Positions 2,904 through 58,640 of a stretch of DNA of 64,000 nt are shown one piece after another. Position numbers and translations under genes: made by a program. Position 1 is the first letter of the stretch; each line of letters begins with the position of its first letter. The notes under the pieces are model-generated. The model saw only the letters and a list, made by a program, of their open reading frames with translations. It searched no databases and was not told where the DNA came from. Source of the DNA: Octopus vulgaris (Eukaryota); assembly GCA_951406725.2 (NCBI GenBank), contig OX597815.1:27342001-27406000 (forward strand). The letters are read 5' to 3'.

Positions 2904-3140
2904 GGGTGGTGAGCTGCAGAAACGTTAGCCCTCCGGGCCAAATGCTTAGCGGTATTTTGTCTGTCTTTGCGTTTTGAGTTCAAATTCCGTCGAGGTTGAC
3001 TTTGCCTTTCATCCTTTCGGGGTCGATAAATTAAGTACCAGTTACGCACTGGGGTCGATGTAATCGACTTAATCCGTTTGTCTGTCCTTGTTTGTCCCCT
3101 CTCTATATAGCCCCTTGTGGGTAATAAACAAATAGGTATT
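2904..3140 (+). mobile_element. SINE family A
   Basis: Full-length match to the other family A copies. Confidence 0.9.
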
Positions 3141-3254
3141 TAGTAAAGAAATAAATAATTATCGCAGCAGTTGCAAGGTAAAATATAAAATTTTTTTGTC
3201 TCTCAGTAATAATTATTGTGGGATTTACCGTTAAATTAGCAAATTAAATTATTA

Positions 3255-3432
3255 TTCAGGTCACTGCTCAGAATCGAACTCGGAATCTTGGGGTTAGTAG
3301 CCCGCGCTCTTAATCACTACGCCATATGCCGAAACGTTGTGTTAACAACAAACAAGATGAGGACAAATATCCGTCAAATGTAAATAATGTAAATAATGTA
3401 CATAATTCTTCATCTCTTAAATATAGAACTGT
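3255..3432. mobile_element. Rearranged solo Penelope pLTR: tRNA-like head on the minus strand, post-hammerhead tail on the plus strand
   Basis: 3255-3330 is the reverse complement of the GGCATATGGCGTAGTG..GAGTTCGATT head. From 3328 the sequence reads GCCGAAACGTTGTGTTAACAACAAACAAGATGAGG.., the same tail as the 48004 and 50222 copies. Confidence 0.85.
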
Positions 3433-3856
3433 ATTATATGTTACAAGTTCAACTGTTTCGTCTACAAGTTCAACTGTTTCGTTCAATATAATCGATCTTA
3501 CAACATTATGTAATAATAAATGCAACTAATGATTACCTCCTACGTGACATTCAGGTTAACCTGAAAACTTTCTGTTATGTATATGTAACAACATGAACAC
3601 TATTATAATGAAATTACTAAAACACCTATCTCTTTCTCTTACTCAGTATAGACAAATATGTTTTTTAAGAAAAAACACACACATACACTCACAAATAGCT
3701 GCAACCTCAAGAGTCTCATTATTAACCTTAAGCACTGTGATGGGTAACACAGGAGACAGTAACTGTCCCGCTCTGACCAAGTCTTATACGCCCATCTCCG
3801 CGTACATTGTCTGCTCAATCAGACCTGACTTGGGGCTACACAAACACAATATCTCA

Positions 3857-4051
3857 CGACCCCGAAAGGATGAAAGGCAAAGTCGACCTCGGAAGTTCAA
3901 ATTCCGCCGAGGTCGACTTTGCCTTTCATCCTTTCGGGGTCGATAAATTAAGTACCAGTTACGCACTGGGGTCGATGTAATCGACTTAATCCATTTGTCT
4001 GTCCTTGTTTGTCCCCTCTGTGTTTAGCCCCCTGTGGGCAATAAAGAAATA
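3857..4051 (+). mobile_element. 5'-truncated SINE A with a fold-back inverted duplication
   Basis: 3857-3892 is the exact reverse complement of 3907-3942. TSD AATATCTCACG on both sides. Confidence 0.88.
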
Positions 4052-4139
4052 AATATCTCACGCACGCACACATACACGCACACATACACACACACATACA
4101 CACACACATACACACACATTCTCTCTCTCTCTCTCACTC

Positions 4140-21035: not shown

Positions 21036-21693
21036 GGTACAGCTTATTCACTCACGTGCGTGCTTGCATGAGTGTGTGTGTGTGTGTGTACATATCCTTA
21101 TACAAGACGGTTAAAAACGGAAGCGGAAACTTGTTGAACTTCCTTTTCACACCTCAATATCTCGAGTTTCCTGTCTATATGCGAAGAATCATTTATGTGG
21201 CGGTAGTAATGCTTAAGAAATATGCTTTCCTTGTTACTACTATGAAGTTTCATTATAGCCAAAAATAATGCGGCGACCTGGCAGAACTGTTAGCGCGTCG
21301 GACAACATGCTTAGCGTTATTACTTCCGATTCTTTACATTCTGAGTTCAAGCTCCGCCGAAATTGACTTTGCCTTGCATCCTTTCACGGGTCAATGAAGT
21401 CGACTGGCCCCATCTCCCCGCAAATTCCAGGCTGTGTGCTAAAATATGTGAAAGTATTATATTGAAATGTGGCTGCTATTACTAACACGTCGGATTGCCT
21501 CTTAGAAGTCTCTTTGTTGGCTCGTCATCTTGTTTCGTTATTCTACCTTATGGGTTCAAATCCTGATAGTGTTTATTTTTGTTTTTCGTCTCTCTACAGG
21601 AGTGATGAAATTTTCAAGTATGCAATTTACTGCATCCACTCCTCTGCAAATATGAATCATACGTTTATGGGGAGAAAATATGACGATGTTAAT

Positions 21694-22075
21694 GGAAGCA
21701 CTCCGTCGGTTACGACGACGAGGATTCCGGTTGATCCGAATCAACGGAACAGCCTGCTCGTGAAATTAACGTGTATGTGGCTGAGCACTCCACAGTCACG
21801 TGTACCCTTAACGTAGTTCTCGGGGATATTCAGCGTGACACAGAGAGTGACAAGGCTGGCCCTTTGAAATAGAGGTACAACAGAAACAGGAAGTAAGAGT
21901 GAGAGAAAGTTGTGGTGAAAGAGTACAGCAGGGATCACCACCATCCCCTGCCGGAGCCTCGTGGAGCTTTAGGTGTTTTCGCTCAATAAACACTCACAAC
22001 GCCCGGTCTGGGAATCGAAACCGCGATCCTATGACCGCGAGTCCGCTGCCCTAACCACTGGGCCATTGCGCCTCC
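21694..22075 (-). mobile_element. tRNA-derived SINE family C
   Basis: A box TGGCCCAGTGG, B box GGTTTCGATTCC. TSD TGACGATGTTAAT. Near-identical to the 27766 copy. Confidence 0.9.
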
Positions 22076-24099: not shown

Positions 24100-24360
24100 T
24101 ATGTAGAGCTTTGAACAAACCTAGCAACGATAGAAAAAGAACTGACGGGAACAGGTGTATGTTTACGCATATGAGTTGCGTCCAAAAAGTGTCTGACTTT
24201 ATTTTTTTTCCCGCCAAATATAAAGTTTTTGGCCGTGCGAGAAAAACCCTTTAGGTTGAGAAGCAACGCCATCTTTCCTGCGCATGCAACGAAAACTTTC
24301 GTGTAGGTAGGCCGCGTCAGTTCCCAGCTGTTACGCCTACGGTATAGACGTGTAGTCTAA

Positions 24361-24843
24361 GGCCGCGAGCTGGCAGAATCGTTAGCACGCCGGGCAAAAT
24401 GCTTAGCGGTATTTCGTCTGCCGTTACGTTCTGAGTTCAAATTCCGCCGAGGTTGACTTTGCCTTTCATCCTTTCGGGATCGATAAATTAAGTACCAGTT
24501 ACGCACTGGGGTCGATGTACTCGACTTAATTCGTTTGTCTGTCCTTGTTTGTCCCCTCTGTGTTTAGCCCCTTCTGGGTAGTAAAGAAATAGGTATAGAC
24601 GTGTAGTCTAAGGCGGCGAGCTGGCAGAAACGTTAGCGCGCCGGGCAAAATGCTTAGCGGTATTTCGTCTGCCGTTACGTTCTGAGTTCAAATTCCGCCG
24701 AGGTTGACTTTGCCTTTCATCCTTTCGGGGTCGATTAAATAAGTACCAGTTACGCACTGGGGTCGATATAATCGACTTAATCCCGTTTGTCTGTCCCTGT
24801 TTGTCCTCTCTGTGTTTAGCCCCTTCTGGGTAGTAAAGAAATA
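24361..24843 (+). mobile_element. Two tandem full-length SINE A copies within a mariner remnant
   Basis: GGTATAGACGTGTAGT occurs at 24341, 24592 and 24844. A mariner remnant (DPDF..GDETSVYG) lies on the minus strand at ~24917-24990. Confidence 0.9.
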
Positions 24844-25921
24844 GGTATAGACGTGTAGTGCGCGCTCGTCGGATTTCGTTTCCACGCAGGATGACCGAAC
24901 ACATTGAGCAGAGACCATAAACCGATGTCTCATCACCGCCGATGTTGGTCTTCGTGAAGTCTGGGTCGTAGTTTGCAAAGTTCAACATGTCCTTATCGAT
25001 CATGTCCTTATCGATCTTCATGCGGAGTTGAAATCATACGGTAATGACATGACAGAAACGTTAGAATATGAGACTAAACATATTTACTAATTAATTACGC
25101 TCAACTGAGTTCAAGTCCAGCCAGAGTTGATTTTATTTATTCATCTCTTAGGATTGTTAAGTTATTAGTTGAACTTTAAGTTTCGAGCTGGCTGAATCGT
25201 TAGCATGCTGGCCGAAAATTTTAACAACAGTTCATCCGTCTTTTTGCTCTGAGTTCAAATTCTACCGAGGTCGACTTTGCCTTTCATCATTTCAGGATTG
25301 ATAAAATAAGTACCAGTTGACCACTGAAATTGATGTTATCGATTGTTTCCCTTTCTCAGATTTTCAGGCCTTCTGCCTACGGTAGAAAAGATTATTAGTT
25401 GAGCCTTGCAACATTTCTTTTTTAGGGTTAAAAATTAAAATTAAAATATGATTGTGATTTACATTTTTATTGGTGTTGGTGAAGTATTATGCACTTTCGT
25501 TTAAGTATTAACACTCTAAAGAATTATATTTAAATCAAGTCTGTTCTGACATTGATCAACAACGTTTTGTCAAGGTTTTATTGACAAGCTTGCGTGTTTT
25601 ATTCCAAAACAAGGCGGATCAAGGAGCTTTAGTAAAACCTCCAATTACTGAGCCTACGTTTTTTGTCTGTTCAACTGGAACTTTAAGTTCAAATATTTCT
25701 GCGCGAGAAGATGTTTAATCTTAGGGAAAATAAACAAATGATCGTGAACTAACAAAGCATCATAAAACTGCGTTTAGTGGCGTTTATTCAAACAGTTCTT
25801 TGAAGTCGGGACTAATGTTGCCGAATAATAAATAAATAATAACGGCTTTTTTTATTGGTAAAGACCCTGACATTTCGCGGAGAGAGGAAAGAACAGGTGA
25901 TTATGTTACACAACAACAAAA

Positions 25922-27719: not shown

Positions 27720-28301
27720 TACTGTATTTTCCAGTATACAAATCGATGTAGGCATATAGGGTAGGCAGGCGCAATGGCCCAGTGGTTAGGGCAGCGGACT
27801 CGCGGTCATAGGATCGCGGTTTCGATTCCCAGACCGGGCGTTGTGAGTGTTTATTGAGCGAAAACACCTAAAAGCTCCACGAAGCTCCGGCAGGGGATGG
27901 TGGTGATCCCTGCTGTACTCTTTCACCACAACTTTCTCCCACTCTTACTTCCTGTTTCTGTTGTACCTGTATTTCAAGGGGCCGGCCTTGTCACTCTCTG
28001 TGTCACGCTGAATATCCCCGAGAACTACGTTAAGGGTGCACGTGTCTGTGGACTGCTCAGCCACTTACACGTTAATTTCACGAGCAGGCTGTTCCGTTGA
28101 TTCGGATCAACCGGAACCCTCATCATCGTAACCGACGGAGTGCTTCCATAGTGGAAACATTCAAACAACGTCACTAGCTTCCCAAATCCTGCTGCATTTT
28201 TTGGTCCTCCAAAGTCGTCTTGGCGTATAAGTCGACCTATTTTTTTGTTGGCTGTAAATTTTCGCATGAAAAATTCGACTTCTACGCCGGAAAATACGGT
28301 A
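27720..28301. mobile_element. pogo/Tigger-like MITE hosting a SINE C
   Basis: TAC(T/C)GTATTTTCC-type TIRs at both ends with TA termini. Confidence 0.6.
27766..28148 (+). mobile_element. SINE family C
   Basis: Reverse-orientation partner of 21694-22075. Confidence 0.9.
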
Positions 28302-34989: not shown

Positions 34990-37900
34990 TTTAACACACT
35001 CACCGGAAACTCAAATATCGAGGCCCAATGGAATAAGAAACCTTCGAGGAAAGAAGAAATTTGGAGTGAACTCAAAGAACTGCAAATTTTACCTGCGAGG
35101 CAAATGTTGTCATGGGGAAGACGGTACAAACTGCCGGTTTGTTCAACCGAGATCCCGCCAAAGCTACAGGGGCCTTAAGGAGAAATACTTCCCTGACGAA
35201 AGGTACCAATCGCCTCCAAAAAAAAAAAAAGACATACAAATGCAGTGCGCTCTTCAGATATTATATCCAAGGCAGCAGCTGAGCAAGAGCCTTTTTGTGC
35301 ACGGCGCAAGATTGTGTAACAGCTGACCTGCTACATTAAACGCAAACAAGGAACCTTGCCCACCACTGCGCAAGACCACCACAATCAACAGACACGAGAT
35401 GGCCTCCTCTAAAACCTGCACAGTCGTCACGCCAATATTTTTACTAAATATTGGGGGTCTGTTGCATCACAACAACAAAAGTAAATTTTTTTTCCTGAGA
35501 GACTTTGCTGCATACAATCAAGCCCAATGCGTAGCACTCGTGGAAACTCATCTGAGCCCTGATATAGAGGATGCAGAAGTACACGTACCAGAATATACCA
35601 TACTACGATCAGACAGAAGGGAGAGGAGCCATGGTGGAGTTGCTGTATGCATCCATGAAGACCTCACACCCCAGGTCTTACTGTCATACTCAGATTCAGT
35701 ATGTAACACTCTAACTGTATACATAAGACAATGCAATGTAGTCATATGCAATATATATCGCCCGCCGGATGCTCCAAACCACATAGACAAGTTTGAAGAT
35801 AGCCTCACAAGAATAAAAGAAATCTTCATGAAACTGGAACACCATGCGAGCGTATTTCTTATGGGTGATTTCAAGTTCCCCAATGTCAAATGGCCTGAAA
35901 GTCTCATGCTCTCAGGAATGACTCATTGCAAACAAGCACAGATGGAGTCTCTGCTCAATCTCACCAATACCCTATTCAGGCAACAAGTTGCTCAGACCAA
36001 CGAGAGCAAATAACATTTTGGATCTCTGCTTCACAAACAATATAGATATCGTTCATGATGTGAAAGTGACGCCGACATTAGTTTCCGATCACAACATAAT
36101 AGAGCTGTCTATGTATGGACCAAAAGTAGCCAGAGATATACAACCTAAAGGAAGCACTCAAAATCTCTCCAGTCTGAACTTCAATAAAGCAGACTGGAAA
36201 TCTATCCAAAATGAGACCCTCAGACAGGACTGGCCGAAATGTCTCTCCACACCAGACATTAGCATGAAACTAGAATACTTCATGTCTGTTATGCAAACTA
36301 TATGCCAGAAATATGTTCCAGGGCACAAGGCCAACACAAAAAGGAACAAGATCCCAAGGGAGAGGAAGATCCTCATGAGACAACGGGCGAAGTTTGCAAA
36401 TCGCTCCAACCAACATTCCAAAAGTAGTGAAAGGTCCCGCCTAAAAACAACACCAATGGAGATTGAAAAAATCCTGCAACAATCCTATGCAAGGGAGAGG
36501 GCAGACAAAGAAGCCTGGGTTATAAAAAAACATCAAGTCAAACATAAAAAGGCCTTCTTTCATTATGCCAAAGAAACAGCCCCAGCACGCTGCAAAATAG
36601 GACCCCTCTTCCAAAAGGATGGCTCTCTCACAGATAGTCCAACTAGAATTAGTGCGGTACTGAATGACCAGTTCGAAAGTGTATTTACTACTCCGTTGGA
36701 ACACAGACAAGTGAACGAACCAAGCAAGCTGGAGGAGGGAATAATACGCCCAATCCATAAAGGAGGAAGCAGAGTAGATGCCAAAACCTGTAGGCCTATC
36801 TCTCTGACTTCACACAACAGCAAAGTCATGGAATGGATAGTCAGAGGGAAACTAATCGCATCTCTTGAAGAAAACAACTTGCTGAGTGATACCCAGCATG
36901 GTATTCGACCAGGTAGGAGCTGCCTGACCCAGCTCTTACAGCACTATGACTGGGTGTTGAGGCAGTTACTCAACAAATCAAAGGTGGACGCAGTATAACT
37001 TGACTTTGCAAAAGCTTTTCATAAAGTAGATCATGAGATCATATGCCACAAACTACTTGATCTTGGTATAGCTAGCAAACTTGGAGAGTGGTTACATGAC
37101 TTTCTGAAAGTCAGGCTGTAGTGGCCAGTGGAGACACCTCAAAGAAAACAAAAATTGTGAGCGGTGTTCCACAGGGCACTGTCTTGGGACCACTGCTTTT
37201 CATTGTGGCCCTCTCAGATATGCCCTCAGCTACCTGGATAGCCACCCTTGCTAGCTACGCAGACGATACTAAAGTCTCGCAGAAAATACAAAACCCCAGC
37301 GGTGTTGCCCACCTGCAGCAGGAGTTGGACTCAATTTATAGGTGAGCTGGAGACAATAATATGCAGTTTAATGCTGAAAAATTCCAAGCCCTGCGCTACC
37401 AGCGTCCAAAACTGAATATCAAACTTACAAGTACACTGGTCCACAGGGGTTTTAAATCCCAGAGCCTAAATCAGTGAGGGACTTGGGTTTCGACATGAGT
37501 GATGATACCTCTTTCCAAGTGCACATTACCAGGATGACTACAAAGTGCAGACGACAGGCTGGCTAGATCCTGATAATGTTCAGGACCAGAGATAAGGAAA
37601 CCATCATCGTCCTCTGGAGGACATTCGTCCTCAGCCGTCTGGACTACTCCTCCCAACTATGGTCACCCAACAGTGTAAAATTAATAGCGGACCTTGAAGC
37701 AATCCAGCGAAGCTTCACAAAGAAGATCGTCTCTTTGCAACAGCTCAGCCACTGAGAAAGGCTGAAACAGCTAAGACTCTACTCCCTGGAGCAAAGGTGG
37801 GAGAGGTATGCAGTAATATACATCTGGAAGATCCTGGAAGGAATTGTGCCAAATTTTGGCATTGAAAGCTAAACTAATGCCAAAACGGGTCGACACTGCA

Positions 37901-43275: not shown

Positions 43276-43833
43276 CAGTGTTAGTTATCTTTATGAGGGA
43301 AAAAAGTCAACTTTTATAGCCTTACAAATTTGCTTCTGTGCTGTATTTATTGAATGTCCATCATATTCATTGATTATATTCATTGATTATATAATGTCAT
43401 CGATGATGGTGACAGTTTTATTGGTTACAGAGAGAGACTGGCGAATCTGTTTAAATGAAATTAAACACATTTTTTCTTACTTTTGCAAATATGGTTCTTA
43501 TTCTACTAATTTACTGTATGTTTTTGTGTTGCGTATATACTCACACACACGCGCACATACACACACATACACACACACACACATTCATACACGCGCATAC
43601 AAACATATAAACTCACATATACACATATTCATATGTTTGTATGCATGATGATGATGAAGATGAAGCTGATGATAATAATAATTATTTTATTTGCCATAGG
43701 CGCGTCGAATAACGGGGACAGCACAAAGACAAGTTAGAGAAAATTGGTGGAGTACACAAAAAAAAAACAAGAAAAAAATCGAATGAGGTTTTTAGAAATT
43801 AACATAGTATAACATAGTATAAGTATTGATGAA

Positions 43834-44255
43834 GGCGGCGAGCTGGCAGAGTCGTTAGCACGTCAGGCGAAATGCTTGGCGGTATTTCGTCTGCCGCTAC
43901 GTTCTGAGTTCAAATTCCGCCGAGGTAGACTTTGCCTTTCATCCTTTCGGGGTCGATAAATTAAGTACCAGTTACGCACTGGGGTCGATGTAATCGACTT
44001 AATCCCTTTGTCTGTCCTTGTTTGTCCCCTCTGTGTTTAGCTCCTTGAGGGTAGTAAAGAAATATGTATTTCGTCTGCCGCTACGTTCTGAGTTCAAATT
44101 CCGCCGAGGTAGACTTTGCTTTTCATCCTTTCGGGGTCGATAAGTTAAGTACCAGTTACGCACTAGGCTCGATGTAATCGACTTAATCCGTTTGTCTGTC
44201 CTTGTTTATTCTCTCTGTGTTTATGTTTAGCCCCTTGTGGGTAGTAAAGAAATAG
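43834..44255 (+). mobile_element. SINE A with a partial tandem repeat of its 3' ~190 nt
   Basis: A second unit restarts at the internal GTATTTCGTCTGCC at 44066. One TSD, GTATAAGTATTGATGA, encloses both units. Confidence 0.9.
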
Positions 44256-44329
44256 GTATAAGTATTGATGATACAGTTCTTCTGACTCAGGATTCTGACT
44301 CAGACTTCTGACTCAGGATTGGAGCCAAT

Positions 44330-46710: not shown

Positions 46711-46885
46711 CCAGAAGTATTAGTTATCTGAATTATATAGTAAGCTCAACAGTATGTTGGTATTTTATTTCATATGAAACGTCTGATGTTCATCTGGTGA
46801 CATTTCATTTGTTAATCATTTAACGTTCTTAGTTCGGTTATAAAAACGAGCGGGTTTATTAAAACCGACGTTTTAGTTCAATATA

Positions 46886-47118
46886 TATTTCTTTACTACA
46901 CACAAGGGGGCTAAACATAGAGGGGACAAACAAGGACAGACAAAGGGATTAGGTCGATTATATCGACCCAGTGCGAAACTGGTATTTAATTTATCGACCC
47001 CGAGAGGATGAAAGGCAAAGTCGACCTCGGCGGAATTTGAACTCAGAACGTAACGACAGACGAAATACGGCTACGCATTTCGCCCGGCGTGCTAACGTTT
47101 CTGCCAGCTCGCCGCCTC
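46886..47118 (-). mobile_element. SINE family A
   Basis: Full copy with 21-bp TSD CCGACGTTTTAGTTCAATATA. Confidence 0.92.
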
Positions 47119-48003
47119 CCGACGTTTTAGTTCAATATAATTAAGGGAAGCTTAGTGATACTGAAATTTACGATTTAAATTCAAAATCTATAGAAGATTC
47201 GACCTTGAATATCGGGAGTTAAAATTTGATTTTATTCAGTCCTCGCTTTTTCTTTTAATCGTGTTGTCAGAAATGGCAGAGGTGTACCATCATATATAGC
47301 TAATTGTATATTTTACTTTACGTGAATATACTGTAAGAAAGCCAAAATACTGAATTATTCGTCTTGAGAAAGCACCTCATATAGACGTATACTGGTAAAA
47401 AGCACAGAAGTATCATTAGTGGACGAAAAACGTCCAGTAGCGGCGACGGAATTGAAAGATTCAGGATTTCTGCATATTTGCGTGCCATCGGTAACAAACA
47501 AGCCTGGGCATCAAACCGTTAATTCGTTAATAGTTAATTAACGAAGTTAACATTTTCGTTAACGATTTAACTTTCAAGTTAACTTTGGAAATTATTATCG
47601 GACTAATTAACTTCCGTTCACTCAAGTCCGCTTGAGTTAACTTCCGTTAACAACAAGATCCCCAAGGTCGCCAAGGTGAGAAAAAACATGGAGAGTAAGG
47701 TCGAGGAAGGCTTGGGGGAGCAGTCTGACGAAGTGAGCAGCAACAACGAAGAGGGGGATGACTTCATTGATGTCACCCAGCCAAAAGAGAGCTGCAGGAG
47801 CCACAGTTCACTCAAGGACAAGGCCCAGAATTTGATCAAGGCCTGGTTGGAGCCCCACTTCAAGGACTTGCTGACAAATGCTGCCTTCTTGGTTGAGCAA
47901 GTGTTGGTGGACTTGTTCATCAAGTTGAACACTGCCATCCTCTCCAGCGCTGCAGTGGAGCATTTTTTTTCCATGGGCAAGGACATCTCTTAACTATATG
48001 CTA

Positions 48004-48075
48004 CAGGCATATGGCGTAGTGGTTAAGAGCACGAGCTACTAACCCCATGATTCCGAGTTCGATTCCAAGCAGTGA

Positions 48076-48147
<72 letters not shown>

Positions 48148-48320
48148 TATCGAAAAATACTTTAGGTATGAGAACCCAAGAACGAAATTTCCCCAAGACA
48201 CCTGATGAAGGCTAGAGGGTATATCAGCCGAACCGTTGTGTTAACAAACAAGATGAGGACAAATATCCGTCAAATGTAAACAATGTACATAATTCCTCAT
48301 CTCTTAAATATAGAACTGTA
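48004..48320 (+). mobile_element. Solo Penelope pLTR unit: tRNA-like head, (TAA)n, hammerhead, 3' hairpin
   Basis: A box TGGCGTAGTGG, B box GAGTTCGATTCC. Collinear with the terminal repeats of the PLE at 50222-51920. Confidence 0.88.
48197..48242 (+). ncRNA. Minimal type-I hammerhead ribozyme motif
   Basis: GACAC-CTGATGA-A-GGCT(AGAGGGTATATC)AGCC-GAACC-GTT-GTGTT. This copy has GAACC; sister copies have GAAAC. Confidence 0.75.
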
Positions 48321-48751
48321 CACTTTTATTATTTGATACTAATATTGTGTTTCATTTGAGTTTTTATTATTATTATTATTATTATTTTACCCTAGTCTGG
48401 CTCTAAAAGCCATTAAAATCTAAAAATAAAAACCCAAACTATGAAATCAGTCTTTTTTAGTTCTTTTCAAAGTTAGAACTATAAAATCAGCATTTTTTAA
48501 CTCTAAAGCAAAAACAAACTCTAGTTTTTAGGTTCTAAAGCCCTCAAAAGGGCAAAAAAAAAGACTGGTTTTATAGTTTGGCACTTTTTATAGATGTTTT
48601 AAGTGATTTTAGAACAAAAACTAATTTTTTGTCTTTTTTCTATAATAAAAATTAAGGTTAACGGTTTATCGATAACTTTCGTTACATTTTTAAAGAATTA
48701 ACTGATTAACGGTTATCAAAGTTAACTTTTCAGTTAACGGTACCCATCTTT

Positions 48752-48982
48752 GGCGAGCTGGCAGAAACGTTAGCACGCCAGGCGAAACGCGTAGCCGTAT
48801 TTTGTCTGCCCTTACGTTCCGAGTTCAAATTCTGCCGAGGTCGACTTTGCCTTTCATCCTTTCGGGGTCGATAAATTAAGTACCAGTTACGCACTGAGGT
48901 CGATGTAATCGACTTAATCCGTTTGTCTGTCCTTGTTTGTCCCCTCTGTGTTTAGCCCCTTGTGGGTAGTAAAGAAATAGGT
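48752..48982 (+). mobile_element. SINE family A inserted in the hAT TIR
   Basis: TSD GGTACCCAT(C/A)TTTGG. Confidence 0.92.
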
Positions 48983-50221
48983 ACCCATATTTGGTATCAA
49001 GTATCCACAATCGTCGCATGCTTAAACAGATAAACAGACAAATAGATATGTTTCATGTGATACACAGTTAATCGTTTGGACGTTTGAGATGAGAATACAG
49101 TAGTCAACAATTATGGAGGGAAAAGAACACATCAAAAACAATACTGAAAGAAAACCATAATGCATGGCTTTGTAGTTAAGACGGTCACCTCATGGCAGCA
49201 ATAGATTTCATTTTGATGCAAGTATTCGGAAGCAGGTCTTAGATCTTATGATAAATTCTTTCTTTTCTCCCATAAACCTCAGAGGACCAGAAAAATTATC
49301 ATAGAGCTACGCTTCCTTCACTAAGTCATTAAAAAGTTTAAAAAGTAAAAGATGAAAATAGAACAGTTCAGTGCGTATGCTTGTCCTAAGTGCTGGAAGC
49401 GGAAAACAATTTCTAAGTGCATAACCTCAACATCGTAGGTCATCGCTCTACAATTTATGACTAAGAAATCTCCTATGCATTTATGCATAAAATATAGAAA
49501 ATAGAAAGCAACAAAAATGTAAATTTTGCAATGTTTGAAATTGAGGAAGGACATTAGCCGTGAGAGAATCTCCTTGAAATATCGATTTCTTTATATTGAC
49601 ACATGATGTTAAATTTTGTGGGGAAAAGAAAGATCGCTTATATTGATCCTAATACTTGATTGGTCCATATTTTATTGATCCTCCAGAAGGATATTAGGCA
49701 GGATCAGCCTCGATGGAATTTAAACTAAGTACGTAAAAGTTAGTGATTAAATAAAGGAATCTATTCAGTTACGGTCTTTTTATGTTCTGGTAAGAAGCGC
49801 TTACCAGATCAATCTGGTTTAAAGAGAAGAAATGAGAAGAAAGGTTGGTTGGGCATAGCTAGACATAATAAGAATAATGGTTTGGAGAAGACTTATATAA
49901 CCTCCAACAAAAAGTGTTTCTTACAGAAACTTTTATTATTTTTGTTTTTGAGACTACCATGATTTCTCTTGGATTTTTGAGTTTTAGTCCAAAATCTTCC
50001 AAGCAATATTATGTGGAATAACAAAAGTTTTTTTTTTAAATCTGTGTTTTAGAATTTAGCTGGATGCTTGGTATCTGGATAAATATCTAGGAGAAAGAAT
50101 ACACCCATGAACTGACAATATAAAGATTGGCAATATCTGTACTCACGTAAAAACTCAACTTATTCCAATCATCCACTGGTTGACAGGCTATGACCTATCT
50201 TCTATGCGACAAAGAATGCTT

Positions 50222-50431
50222 AGTTCTATAGTTAAGAGACGTGGAATTATGTACATTATTTACATTATTTATATTTAGCGGATATTTGTCCTCATCTTGT
50301 TTGTTGTTAACACAACGTTTCCGCTGATATACCCTCCACCCTTCATCAGGTGTCTTCGGTAAATTTTGAACCTAGGTTTTCATTCCTAAATTGTTGTTTT
50401 TTTCCGTCTTTTGATGTTGTTATTGTTGTTG

Positions 50432-50508
<77 letters not shown>

Positions 50509-51920
50509 ATCACTGCTTGGAATCGAATTCAGAATCTTGGTGTTAGTAGACCGCGCTCCTAATCACTACGCCATATGCCCACGGTCAATTATGGAGTGAG
50601 TTTTAGGACTAATATTCTCCCATCTTTCCTTAATACCTGTTCCCATATGCTATTCATATCTGTACTCGGTCTGTCCTAACATATGTGCTGCTTCTTTTAG
50701 TTTTCGTATTTTCCAGTCATGTTCTCCGTCTATTATTTTAACTTCATCCCACAGGAAGAGGTGGTTTCCATTTTCCATACATGATCAGCTATACCCAATT
50801 TATCAATAGCTCCCCGTATCACAGCTTTGCGATGTTCCTCTACCCTTATTTTGAGGGGACGGCATTTTCGCCTTTGAATAATCTACCACAGCTGCATGGG
50901 ATGGAGTACACGCAGTTCTTGGTCATATTCTCTTCTATTGGTGGTTTTACACGAAGGAGATATTTGCGAAGTGTTGTATTACTCTTGAATACTGTCCTGA
51001 TGTCATATGGACCGCATATCTTTTGCATCTTTTCGGAGAGGCCTTTCACATAGGACAGTTTATCGGTTTCATCCTCTCTTTTCTTCATAATTGGAGTAGC
51101 GAGTATGCTTTTGAGGTAGTTGTTGCTTGATAGATTGTTACTGAGCTTGATCATTTCTTCGTGACGGGTATCATGATCGCTACTTATACTCATTGTTCGA
51201 TGTTTTAGGTACTGAGCAATCTCTCTCTTTACACTGTATGGCTGGTGGGAGTTGAAGTTGAGGTATCGTCCAGTGAAGCTCGGCTTGCGGTATACGGATG
51301 TCCTGAATCCATACTTAGTGCGTGTTATTAATACGTCCAGGAATGCTAGCTGATTGTCTTTTTCTTTTTCCATTGTGTACTGTATGGATGGCTTTATTGA
51401 GTTCACATGATCTAGCAGCAATTGGACATCTTCCTGGTAGGGCCAGAGTACGAAGGTGTCATCAACATAACGCAGCCATAGGGTTGGTTTTAGTGGTGTT
51501 GATCCTAAAGCCAAATTCTCAGAGTATTACATGGAAATATTAGCTATTATCGGTGACAACGGCGAACCCATAGCTAAATCCTCTTCTTGTCGCAGTATGG
51601 ACACTGATATATATCGACAAGAAGAGGGTTTAAGGAAGGATAGGAGAATATTAGATTTATAAGCCTTAAAATTCACTCTATAATTGCCCACGGGCATATG
51701 GCGTAGTGGTTAAGAGCGCGGGCTACTAACCCCAAAATTCCGAGTTCGATTCCAGACAGTGACCTTAATAATAATAATAATAATAATAAAATAATAAAAT
51801 CAACAATATCAAAAAAATACCCAGGTTCGAAATTTCCCGAAGACACCTGATGAAGGCTGTGTTAACAACAAACAAGATGAGGACAAAAATCCGTCAAATA
51901 TAAATAATGTAAATAATGAA
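50222..51920 (-). mobile_element. 5'-truncated Penelope-like element (RT plus GIY-YIG endonuclease) with inverted pLTRs
   Basis: AMGSPLSP, WLRYVDD, FLDVLI, VYRKP, LNFNSH, CVYSIPCSCG..GE, RVEEH, IADH, RKLKEA. pLTR at 50222-50630 on the minus strand and an inverted copy at ~51630-51920 on the plus strand. Confidence 0.92.
50309..50354 (-). ncRNA. Minimal type-I hammerhead motif in the PLE 3' pLTR
   Basis: GACAC-CTGATGA-AGGGTG(GAGGGTATAT)CAGCG-GAAAC-GTT-GTGTT. The core is intact; helix II has two mismatches. Confidence 0.78.
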
Positions 51921-52000
51921 AAGAATTCTTAAGACAGTTGCACACCTTCATAATGAATGCAATATATTTTTTGTATATATACAAATTACTTATACTCTCA

Positions 52001-53296: not shown

Positions 53297-53812
53297 ATTA
53301 GGTTGGTGCAAAAGTAATGTCCGATTTAAAGATCTAAGGTAACAATGAATAAGCCAATGACTATGGAAATATTTATTCATTAACACACTCTCCATTGCTT
53401 TCAGTGACTTCATTCCATCTTTCAGCAACCTTATAAATGTCTCGCTTGTAAAATTCTGAAGGTTTAGAACCAAAATATGAATCCAACTCATTTTCAGTCA
53501 CTTCTCTTGTTAACCTAAGTCCAGCAAAATGGTTCTGTAGTCCTCGGAACAAATGTTAATCAGAAGGAGCAAGGTCAGGAGAATATGAAGGATGAGGCAG
53601 TATTTCCCAACCAATTTCTTCCAAGAGAGTTTTGGTCAGTCGAGCTGTGTGAGGACGAGCATTATCGTGGTGGAAGATGACACCCTTTCTGTAAACCAAG
53701 GATGCTCGCTTTTGGCTCAGAACTGTTTTCAAATGACGAAGTTGCTCACAGTAAAGATTAGCATTAAGTGTCTGGTTGTTGTCCAGCATTTCATAATGGA
53801 TTACTTTGGATG
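53297..53812 (-). mobile_element. Mariner 3' fragment
   Basis: FHHDNARPH and HPSYSPDLAPSD. TIR TATTAGGTTGGTGCAAAAGTAAT. Confidence 0.88.
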
Positions 53813-53821
53813 AAGTCCTGC

Positions 53822-53892
53822 TCTTCATCAGGTGTCCTGGTAGAATTTTGAACCCAACCCTGGGTTCTTATTCCTAAGGTATTTTTTGCTGG

Positions 53893-53932
<40 letters not shown>

Positions 53933-54004
53933 TATTCAAGACACTGCCTGGAATTGAACTCGCAATCTTGGGGGTAAGTAGCCCGCGCTCTTAACCATTA
54001 CGCT
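53822..54004 (-). mobile_element. Solo PLE pLTR unit truncated inside the hammerhead
   Basis: tRNA-like head, (TAA)n, then ACACCTGATGAAG where it stops. Confidence 0.82.
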
Positions 54005-54143
54005 ATATATAAAATATAGAAAAGTAAAATATAGAACAGTATGAATGCAAGTGTCTAGATTAACTAACTGTGGATCAAAACAGAGCTACGACTGTGTCCT
54101 ACCTTACTAGGCGCCTTTTCCTCACTTCGTGCTTTCTCTACGC

Positions 54144-58373: not shown

Positions 58374-58606
58374 GGGCGGTGAGCTGGCAGAATCGTTAGT
58401 ACACCGGGCGAAATGTGTAGCCGTATTTCGTCTGCTGTTAAGTTCTGAGTTCAAATTCCGCCGAGGTTGACTTTGCCTTTCATCCTTTCGGGGTCGATAA
58501 ATTAAGTACCAGTTACGCACTGGGGATCGATGAAATTGACTTAATCCGCTTGTCTGTTCTTGTTTATCCCCTCTGTGTTTAGCCCCATGTGGGTAGTAAA
58601 GAAATA
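58374..58606 (+). mobile_element. SINE family A within (TATG)n
   Basis: Full-length match. Confidence 0.9.
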
Positions 58607-58640
58607 TGTATGTATGTATGTATGAATGTATGTATGTATG

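Follow-up and report, generated by a model that had tools for sequence, protein, structure and literature searches.

A tRNA-derived head opens the pseudo-LTR of a putative Poseidon-type Penelope-like element in Octopus vulgaris and coincides with most 5' ends of its head-bearing copies

Introduction

Penelope-like elements (PLEs), such as Penelope and the anole Poseidon element PAc, are described as carrying an open reading frame (ORF) for a reverse transcriptase (RT) with a C-terminal GIY-YIG-type endonuclease, and a pseudo-LTR (pLTR) that overlaps the start of this ORF and holds a minimal type I hammerhead ribozyme (PMC11167929, PMC4209133, PMC8557442). In anole Poseidon the ORF begins in the hammerhead and reverse transcription starts in vitro internally at two sites early in the ORF, giving a tail of about 30 nt (PMC11167929). 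Inverted 5'-truncated arms and tails are known from PLEs, as are pLTRs themselves (Craig 2021, PMC8557442), and most genomic PLE hammerheads are reported to be single or to lie in opposite-strand pairs, as truncated PLEs (Cervera and De la Pena 2014, PMC4209133). The minimal ribozymes of PLEs are characterized by an extra base after position 9 and a palindromic 15.2-16.2 (PMC4209133), and transcription of the Drosophila virilis Penelope has been described as starting in the pLTR from a LINE-like internal promoter (PMC2377424).

Small-RNA promoters and hammerheads also meet in other repeats. The short repeats SM-alpha and Sj-alpha of Schistosoma combine a tRNA-type Pol III promoter with a type I hammerhead (PMC6765202, PMC4918200); they are often tandem and are freed from multimers by hammerhead cleavage, and the available text of these reports names no partner. 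Non-LTR retrozymes are short hammerhead sequences from PLE pLTRs for which PLE enzymes have been proposed (bioRxiv 10.64898/2026.07.22.740005; PMC7761336); they are defined by tandem arrays and circular RNA, and a word search of the available preprint text (10.64898/2026.07.22.740005) returned neither "tRNA" nor "Pol III". The TRIMp3 elements Helenus and Cassandra carry a small-RNA-derived Pol III promoter in a terminal repeat, proposed to come from insertion of a SINE into the repeat, and are non-autonomous LTR elements with PBS, PPT and 5-bp TSDs (Kojima 2024, PMC10886601). SINEs of tRNA origin are short, interspersed and present in thousands of copies, with a tRNA head and a 3' part derived from the mobiliser (PMC3531059); the octopus SINE OR1 has been described as a CORE-SINE (PMC4824008).

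Here we describe a repeat unit from a 64-kb stretch of Octopus vulgaris DNA (the window, 64,000 nt analysed as a whole) that shares features with all of these systems. With Poseidon and other PLEs it has in common the RT and GIY-YIG-type ORF, the pLTR overlapping the ORF start with its minimal type I hammerhead, and two internal RT starts giving a tail of about 30 nt, and it differs from them in a pLTR that opens with a tRNA-derived head, bearing A and B boxes, and a (TAA)n tract, and in a sharp 5' wall at the head start. Like the Schistosoma repeats it pairs a tRNA-type promoter with a hammerhead; unlike them it is dispersed, mostly as inverted pairs, is part of an autonomous PLE and includes the ORF start of that element. 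Complete-unit arrays of the kind that define retrozymes are absent from the 89 loci inspected and from the window, the element carrying the promoter is an autonomous PLE and not a non-autonomous LTR element as in TRIMp3, and, in contrast to SINEs, the partner is a PLE with the same head, the 3' part is the 5' end of an ORF, and neither a TSD nor a separate lineage was found. The open-access literature we covered yielded no PLE with a Pol III or tRNA-derived pLTR head; a head of this kind may already be catalogued in Repbase/Dfam or among the octopus SINEs OK, OR1 and OR2. A first-pass annotation of this DNA had proposed a ribozyme-bearing SINE mobilised by PLE machinery, in contrast to the LINEs used by known SINEs; the novelty of that proposal is tempered by the hammerhead repeats with Pol III promoters known in Schistosoma and by the pLTR-derived non-autonomous retrozymes already proposed.

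Results

The unit at position 48,004

Element positions are numbered from +1, the first G of GGCATATGG at 48006, with position 0 preceding it. Examination of the window confirmed a head-(TAA)n-hammerhead unit at 48006-48320 (+), with the following parts and surroundings:

47500..48752 (approximate ends), + strand: host DNA-transposon derivative interrupted by the unit, from comparison with intact copies; presumably hAT-like
47988..48005, no strand: 5' junction, a probable degenerate inverted head-start piece followed by element positions -2..0
48006..48079, + strand: tRNA-derived head without a cloverleaf, closest to tRNA-Arg of the 30 tRNA loci compared
48012..48022 and 48057..48066, + strand: A box and B box inside the head
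48080..48149, + strand: (TAA)n tract, of a length that differs from copy to copy
48168..48320, + strand: first 51 codons of the PLE ORF, with one in-frame stop in this copy, from in-frame continuation and alignment
48198..48241, + strand: minimal type I hammerhead within the ORF start, from a motif match

A short spacer separates the (TAA)n tract from the ATG at 48168, and the 3' end at 48320 corresponds to the distal of two priming sites, the proximal one lying near 48293. The head aligned with tRNA-Arg(TCT) of the same genome at 49 of 71 columns (score 64, against a maximum of 43 in 500 shuffles); because tRNAs from only 30 genomic loci were compared and Arg-ACG was missing among them, the isotype is tentative. 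Both promoter boxes are preserved while the pairing of the tRNA stems is lost. ARAGORN and Rfam made no call for either the head or the hammerhead, so the latter is identified by its motif match to the published minimal type. In the family it comprises stem I (ACAC/GTGT), CTGATGA, an extra A, stem II, GAA and a palindromic ACGT, and the extra base and the palindrome agree with the minimal PLE ribozymes as described in PMC4209133; in the 48,004 copy the core is mutated, with A15.1 changed to C and a mismatch in stem II.

Relative to intact host copies, insertion of the unit removed about 170 nt of the host element and left no TSD, the latter in agreement with the first-pass annotation, which had also placed the first TTTT correctly at 48324, past the unit end. 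Compared by eye with intact host copies (L333-L345), 47988-48002 is likely a degenerate inverted piece of the head start.

Other copies in the window

Five heads occur in the window. The remaining copies are made up of these features:

3248..3330, - strand: head and short TAA, one arm of an inverted pair
3328..3433, + strand: 3' half of the hammerhead and tail, the partner arm
50222..50579, - strand: 3' pLTR of a PLE copy with ORF, comprising head, (TAA)n, hammerhead and tail
50587..51590, - strand: 5'-truncated PLE ORF remnant, C-terminal part of the RT and GIY-YIG-type endonuclease region
51621..51930, + strand: inverted arm with about 70 nt of the ORF end, head, (TAA)n and hammerhead
53823..54008, - strand: head-(TAA)n-ORF start, cut inside the hammerhead
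54010..54041, + strand: short duplicated piece resembling the tail end, by eye

Three copies had been noted before as solo units that begin close to the tRNA head, and their starts do lie at or near it (48003 is -2, 54008 is +4, 3330 is +1). The solo label was not confirmed: 3255-3432 consists of two opposite-strand pieces (3330-3248 on the minus and 3328-3433 on the plus strand), the copy at 53823-54008, itself cut inside the hammerhead, adjoins the short opposite-strand piece 54010-54041, likely a tiny inverted arm, and the 48,004 copy has the probable inverted head piece described above. Two copies that had been overlooked both belong to the ORF-bearing inverted insertion at 50222-51930, where an ORF remnant directly abuts the unit and the inverted arm, whose hammerhead has an internal deletion and which ends at the proximal site, lies on the opposite side. 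The sequence at 53300-53822, beside the cut hammerhead, may have truncated the 53823 copy; from its motifs we take it to be a mariner-type transposase remnant.

The window also holds repeats of other kinds. An interspersed repeat of about 230 nt with a SINE-like start, unrelated to the head, is present in about 10 copies of roughly 90% identity (among them 1304-1533, 2905-3142, 24360-24850, 43833-44260, 46880-47117, 48752-48983 and 58375-58611), some of them tandem or with short inverted arms (3857-4060). Two copies of a repeat of about 380 nt, 97% identical and on opposite strands (21692-22073 and 27767-28149), have one end that by eye resembles a different tRNA-derived head, and a LINE remnant at 35327-36998 (+) encodes an endonuclease (PF14529/PF03372) and the start of an RT (PF00078) in two frames.

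The parent element

Sequence comparison identifies the short unit as the pLTR of an autonomous Poseidon-type PLE, not a free-standing SINE. The element reads ORF, about 35 nt, head, (TAA)n, ATG, hammerhead, then two priming sites about 27 nt apart. Of 30 loci selected with a 31-mer from the end of the ORF, 29 have the head directly behind it. The last 150 nt or so of the unit, hammerhead included, are the first 51 or so codons of the ORF: at locus L137 the tail of the unit runs on in frame into the ORF, 22 loci span this junction, and P0003, an intact relative of 847 aa, matches the tail in the window over its residues 18-61 (45% identity, E 1.4e-8). The unit described in the first-pass annotation as free of ORF sequence thus carries the ORF start at 48168-48320, one in-frame stop aside, and the occurrence of the same head on an autonomous PLE (29/30 loci) speaks against a separate non-autonomous element.

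A 569-aa open frame matched RVT_1 at E 2.7e-6, just under the Pfam cut-off, and P0003 matched it with 43 bits. The ORF has 2,923 homologs, some annotated PF01541, and its relatives (P0001-P0022) are 55-68% identical; its C-terminal endonuclease motif, seen by eye, we take to be GIY-YIG-type. As in Penelope and Poseidon, a single ORF joins an RT to such an endonuclease, the pLTR overlaps the ORF start and holds a minimal type I hammerhead, and insertions have an inverted 5'-truncated arm with a tail of 30-40 nt at one end; the clade label is provisional, drawn from domain order and hammerhead position only. The hammerhead, predicted from its motif, would be an ordinary PLE ribozyme and dispensable for the short-copy route proposed below. 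Contigs of four organisms cover ORF, head and tail, and in three of them one listed piece bridges the ORF end and the head.

Insertion structure and abundance

A hammerhead 34-mer has 1,987 exact copies in the genome, of which 90 loci were taken in their order along one contig. Among the 89 distinct insertions were 56 head-to-head inverted pairs, 31 copies in a single orientation and 2 tail-to-tail pairs, with ORF sequence in 13. The 3' ends are bimodal, and 49 of 55 pairs combine one long end with one about 27 nt shorter. This geometry is PLE-type and the insertions are PLE-made, so that the earlier suggestion of PLE machinery is borne out by the inverted pairs and the two 3' priming sites. 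A random sample of 800 kb contained 5 loci, corresponding to roughly 6,000-40,000 insertions in the 2.8-Gb genome; these being too few for a histogram of ends, motif-anchored loci were used for that purpose. The ratio of solo to ORF-linked copies, a quantity called for in the first-pass annotation, came to about 8-12 short copies for each ORF-linked one.

Ten single-orientation copies had no consistent TSD, their longest shared words measuring 4-12 nt. The first-pass annotation had also called for a search for tandem arrays; no array with at least two complete hammerhead units was seen on inspection of the 89 loci, where a few partial duplications occur, or in the 64-kb window, and no unit-length back-joint indicative of circular RNA was present among the 15 listed of 103 RNA-seq joints. 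At some loci (L349, L355, L356, L363, L366) the product is a partial tandem: a fresh pLTR adjoins a piece that ends 33-226 nt within the ORF, and template jumps of the RT between RNAs are the likely cause. In L182, L199 and L190 the head is parted from the tail by other retroelements, RTE-like by eye, that lie inside the (TAA)n tract, which apparently attracts insertions.

5' ends of the copies

The 5' ends of 108 head-bearing arms from 90 hammerhead-anchored and 30 head-anchored loci were placed with the more conservative of two junction callers, looser calls having over-extended through the palindrome and AT repeats. Thirty-four arms end at +6..+60, 62 at -9..+5, one at -12 and 11 in the ORF; none of the 108 ends at -30..-16. 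Within the wall zone (-9..+5) 62 of the 74 at-risk arms stop, against 6 expected from the loss rate within the head. The count does not include 31 further arms from similarity-ranked loci; their addition gives 78 of 139 at the wall and 12 in the ORF. Exact anchors are biased to younger copies, and because of head damage at least three ORF-linked arms (L161, L225, L256) escaped them, which puts the ORF share at about 10-13%. About nine in ten head-containing copies thus stop short of the ORF, mostly at the head start, and the ends pile up there and are not spread at random into the ORF, as the first-pass annotation had predicted and as a Pol III start would give. Exact 31-mers agree genome-wide, with 145 matches just upstream of the head and 1,744 inside it.

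The wall lies 10-14 nt before the intact A box, and the B box lies 45 nt beyond the A box. A spacing of 10-14 nt between start and A box is typical of type 2 Pol III promoters. The 40-nt fold at the wall (-13.4 kcal/mol) is also the most stable hairpin in the region: the head start is itself a hairpin (TGCCC-AC-GGGCA), and -47..-3 is an imperfect, old inverted copy of the head (p 0.006 against shuffles). Because head start and inverted copy together form the strongest local fold, a real rival to any RNA start at the head is that the RT stalls or turns back at this hairpin while copying a long RNA, and so drops off. Most junctions at -7 are indeed fold-backs in genomic DNA, and loose ends at -7 in the three RNA-seq runs (413, 310 and 325 reads) match the genomic fold-back junction.

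The bases beyond the wall bear on this alternative directly. Non-ORF arms that reach -7 gave 39 rows from 28 loci, palindromic junctions appearing on both strands, and beyond -7 these carry fold-back bases in 34 rows, other bases in 5 and ORF-type bases in none, which suggests that the template did not extend past -7. The stronger hairpin needs template to -14 or beyond, and many cDNAs copied from a long RNA would be expected to fold back from there, where they pair better. No more than 2 of the 108 arms have their end in -30..-8. Moreover, 35 of the 62 wall arms have no head-bearing partner, and arms that pass the wall continue with low loss. RT drop-off on a long RNA consequently appears quite unlikely. 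Among 22 loci, two (L353 and L361) extend from an upstream head into the body of the ORF; both begin at this wall, which makes it likely that the long RNA has its start there as well. On the simplest reading, the end of the template would fall at -3..-7 and thus 10-14 nt ahead of the A box.

The 11 of 108 arms that end at position 0, the equivalent of tRNA +1, would fit a 5' end made by an RNase P-like cut at a tRNA-like fold within a longer transcript. Several of these calls reflect trimming of local alignments at decayed CpGs, the head lacks a tRNA fold, and 30 arms carry bases at -1..-8, making cleavage a very improbable origin of the wall.

Transcription of the element

We lean towards a start of the template RNA by Pol III at the wall, with the PLE RT priming within the same pLTR and so generating SINE-like short copies. 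The 2,650-nt majority sequence of the element contains 13 TTT runs and no TTTT. The first-pass annotation had advised a search for T4 depletion, and a deficit was found, a weak one: p is about 0.03 for the 618-codon main frame (synonymous shuffle), and the 21 open frames of the family contain 6 T4 runs against 25.8 expected (71 other frames, 248 against 234), the weakness being that these 21 frames share one ancestor and that several other retroelement frames are also T4-poor. Four low-scoring loci considered as a T4 control from another Poseidon family proved to belong to the same family. Open frames of PLE-like families more distant by eye (L041, L048, L075, L352) have no T4 deficit.

RNA-seq data, about 6% of the reads of each of three runs from one study, covered both strands at equal depth, with 79-81% of reads continuing into unrelated sequence; neither a pile of starts nor a discrete transcript was seen in the three runs. 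Since such libraries would miss short Pol III RNA, these data bear neither way on Pol III. The depth ratio of head to ORF was about 3-4 in RNA-seq and about 8-12 in DNA.

A fixed start could also be made by Pol II, as the LINE-like promoter of D. virilis Penelope illustrates (PMC2377424), in which case the usual internal pLTR promoter would be at work and the tRNA head would be a mere passenger that descends from an ancient insertion of a SINE or tRNA. The ORF requires a translatable RNA and is relatively richer in RNA-seq than in DNA, as expected under this alternative, which we nevertheless regard as unlikely, given that the wall sits 10-14 nt before the A box with the B box 45 nt on, that the boxes were kept and the stems were not, and that the T4 deficit, weak as it is, extends over the whole element. 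The B box is damaged in 10 of 79 short and 20 of 59 ORF-linked copies, a comparison confounded as a test of Pol III because tails differ as well (24 of 75 against 30 of 55 damaged), through ascertainment and age. ORF-linked heads at L271-L300 often have small, differing deletions around the end of the B box, several of them between short repeats.

A bolder version of the Pol III start, in which transcription of the whole PLE has been handed to the captured tRNA promoter, so that Pol III makes both short pLTR RNAs and a T4-free 2.65-kb template and thereby breeds a SINE-like parasite, is possible but doubtful.

Sources of the short copies

The short copies might alternatively form a separate non-autonomous SINE-like lineage, in which they are themselves the main sources and are mobilised in trans by the PLE. 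Several observations fit such a lineage: the 8-12 fold excess of short copies, their slightly less diverged heads (7.0% against 9.5%, under differing ascertainment), the occurrence of T4 at a median of 88 nt beyond the 3' end, and a skew of tail variants (126G in 14 short and 2 ORF-linked copies, 128T in 2 and 10, p 0.0003). The skew implies that sources differ in output, and short copies could be among them. Yet neither head nor tail has a variant confined to short copies, the autonomous element has the same head, and short and ORF-linked labels intermix on a tree of 120 tails (35 changes against 36.5 when shuffled, p 0.34, at low power). We therefore hold a separate lineage to be improbable, and this intermixing, together with the ORF start within the unit, counts further against the free-standing element of the first-pass annotation. 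Short copies can arise without it, by first-pLTR priming on the element's own RNA.

Seven of the 30 head-anchored arms lack a tail and were considered as a stand-alone head-(TAA)n SINE donor; most appear to be broken within the TAA tract and one is linked to an ORF, so that such a donor is not supported. Measured against SINEBase, the unit is under 1 kb, interspersed and present in at least 100 copies (1,744 and 1,987 exact matches; 5 loci in 800 kb), with at least 60% tRNA identity over at least 60 nt (49/71 columns); in place of a LINE partner, its 3' part is a PLE ORF start and its insertion geometry is PLE-type.

Discussion

The reading we favour, of a Pol III start at the wall, can be set out as a sequence of steps. 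Pol III would start the element RNA at the captured tRNA-derived promoter of the head, and the PLE protein would bind the region of the ORF start and prime reverse transcription internally at two sites, by analogy with the in vitro result for anole Poseidon. From a start in the first pLTR, the RT would run off the 5' end of the RNA after about 300 nt, where the end of the cDNA would often fold back on the TGCCC-AC-GGGCA hairpin to give short, mostly inverted copies, while priming in the second pLTR of a pLTR-ORF-pLTR RNA would give the roughly 10-13% of copies that are ORF-linked. By a SINE-like route, short Pol III transcripts of lone pLTRs would be used likewise.

In repeat libraries this family would probably appear as two entries, a "tRNA SINE" and a "Penelope". 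With a fixed 5' end and thousands of copies, its fold-back junctions and paired long and short 3' ends offer a direct genomic read-out of how the inverted repeats of PLEs form. If the Pol III start is true, capture of a tRNA promoter by an autonomous element itself would be a route to the birth of a SINE, and SINE-like parasitism would extend to the machinery of PLEs rather than that of LINEs.
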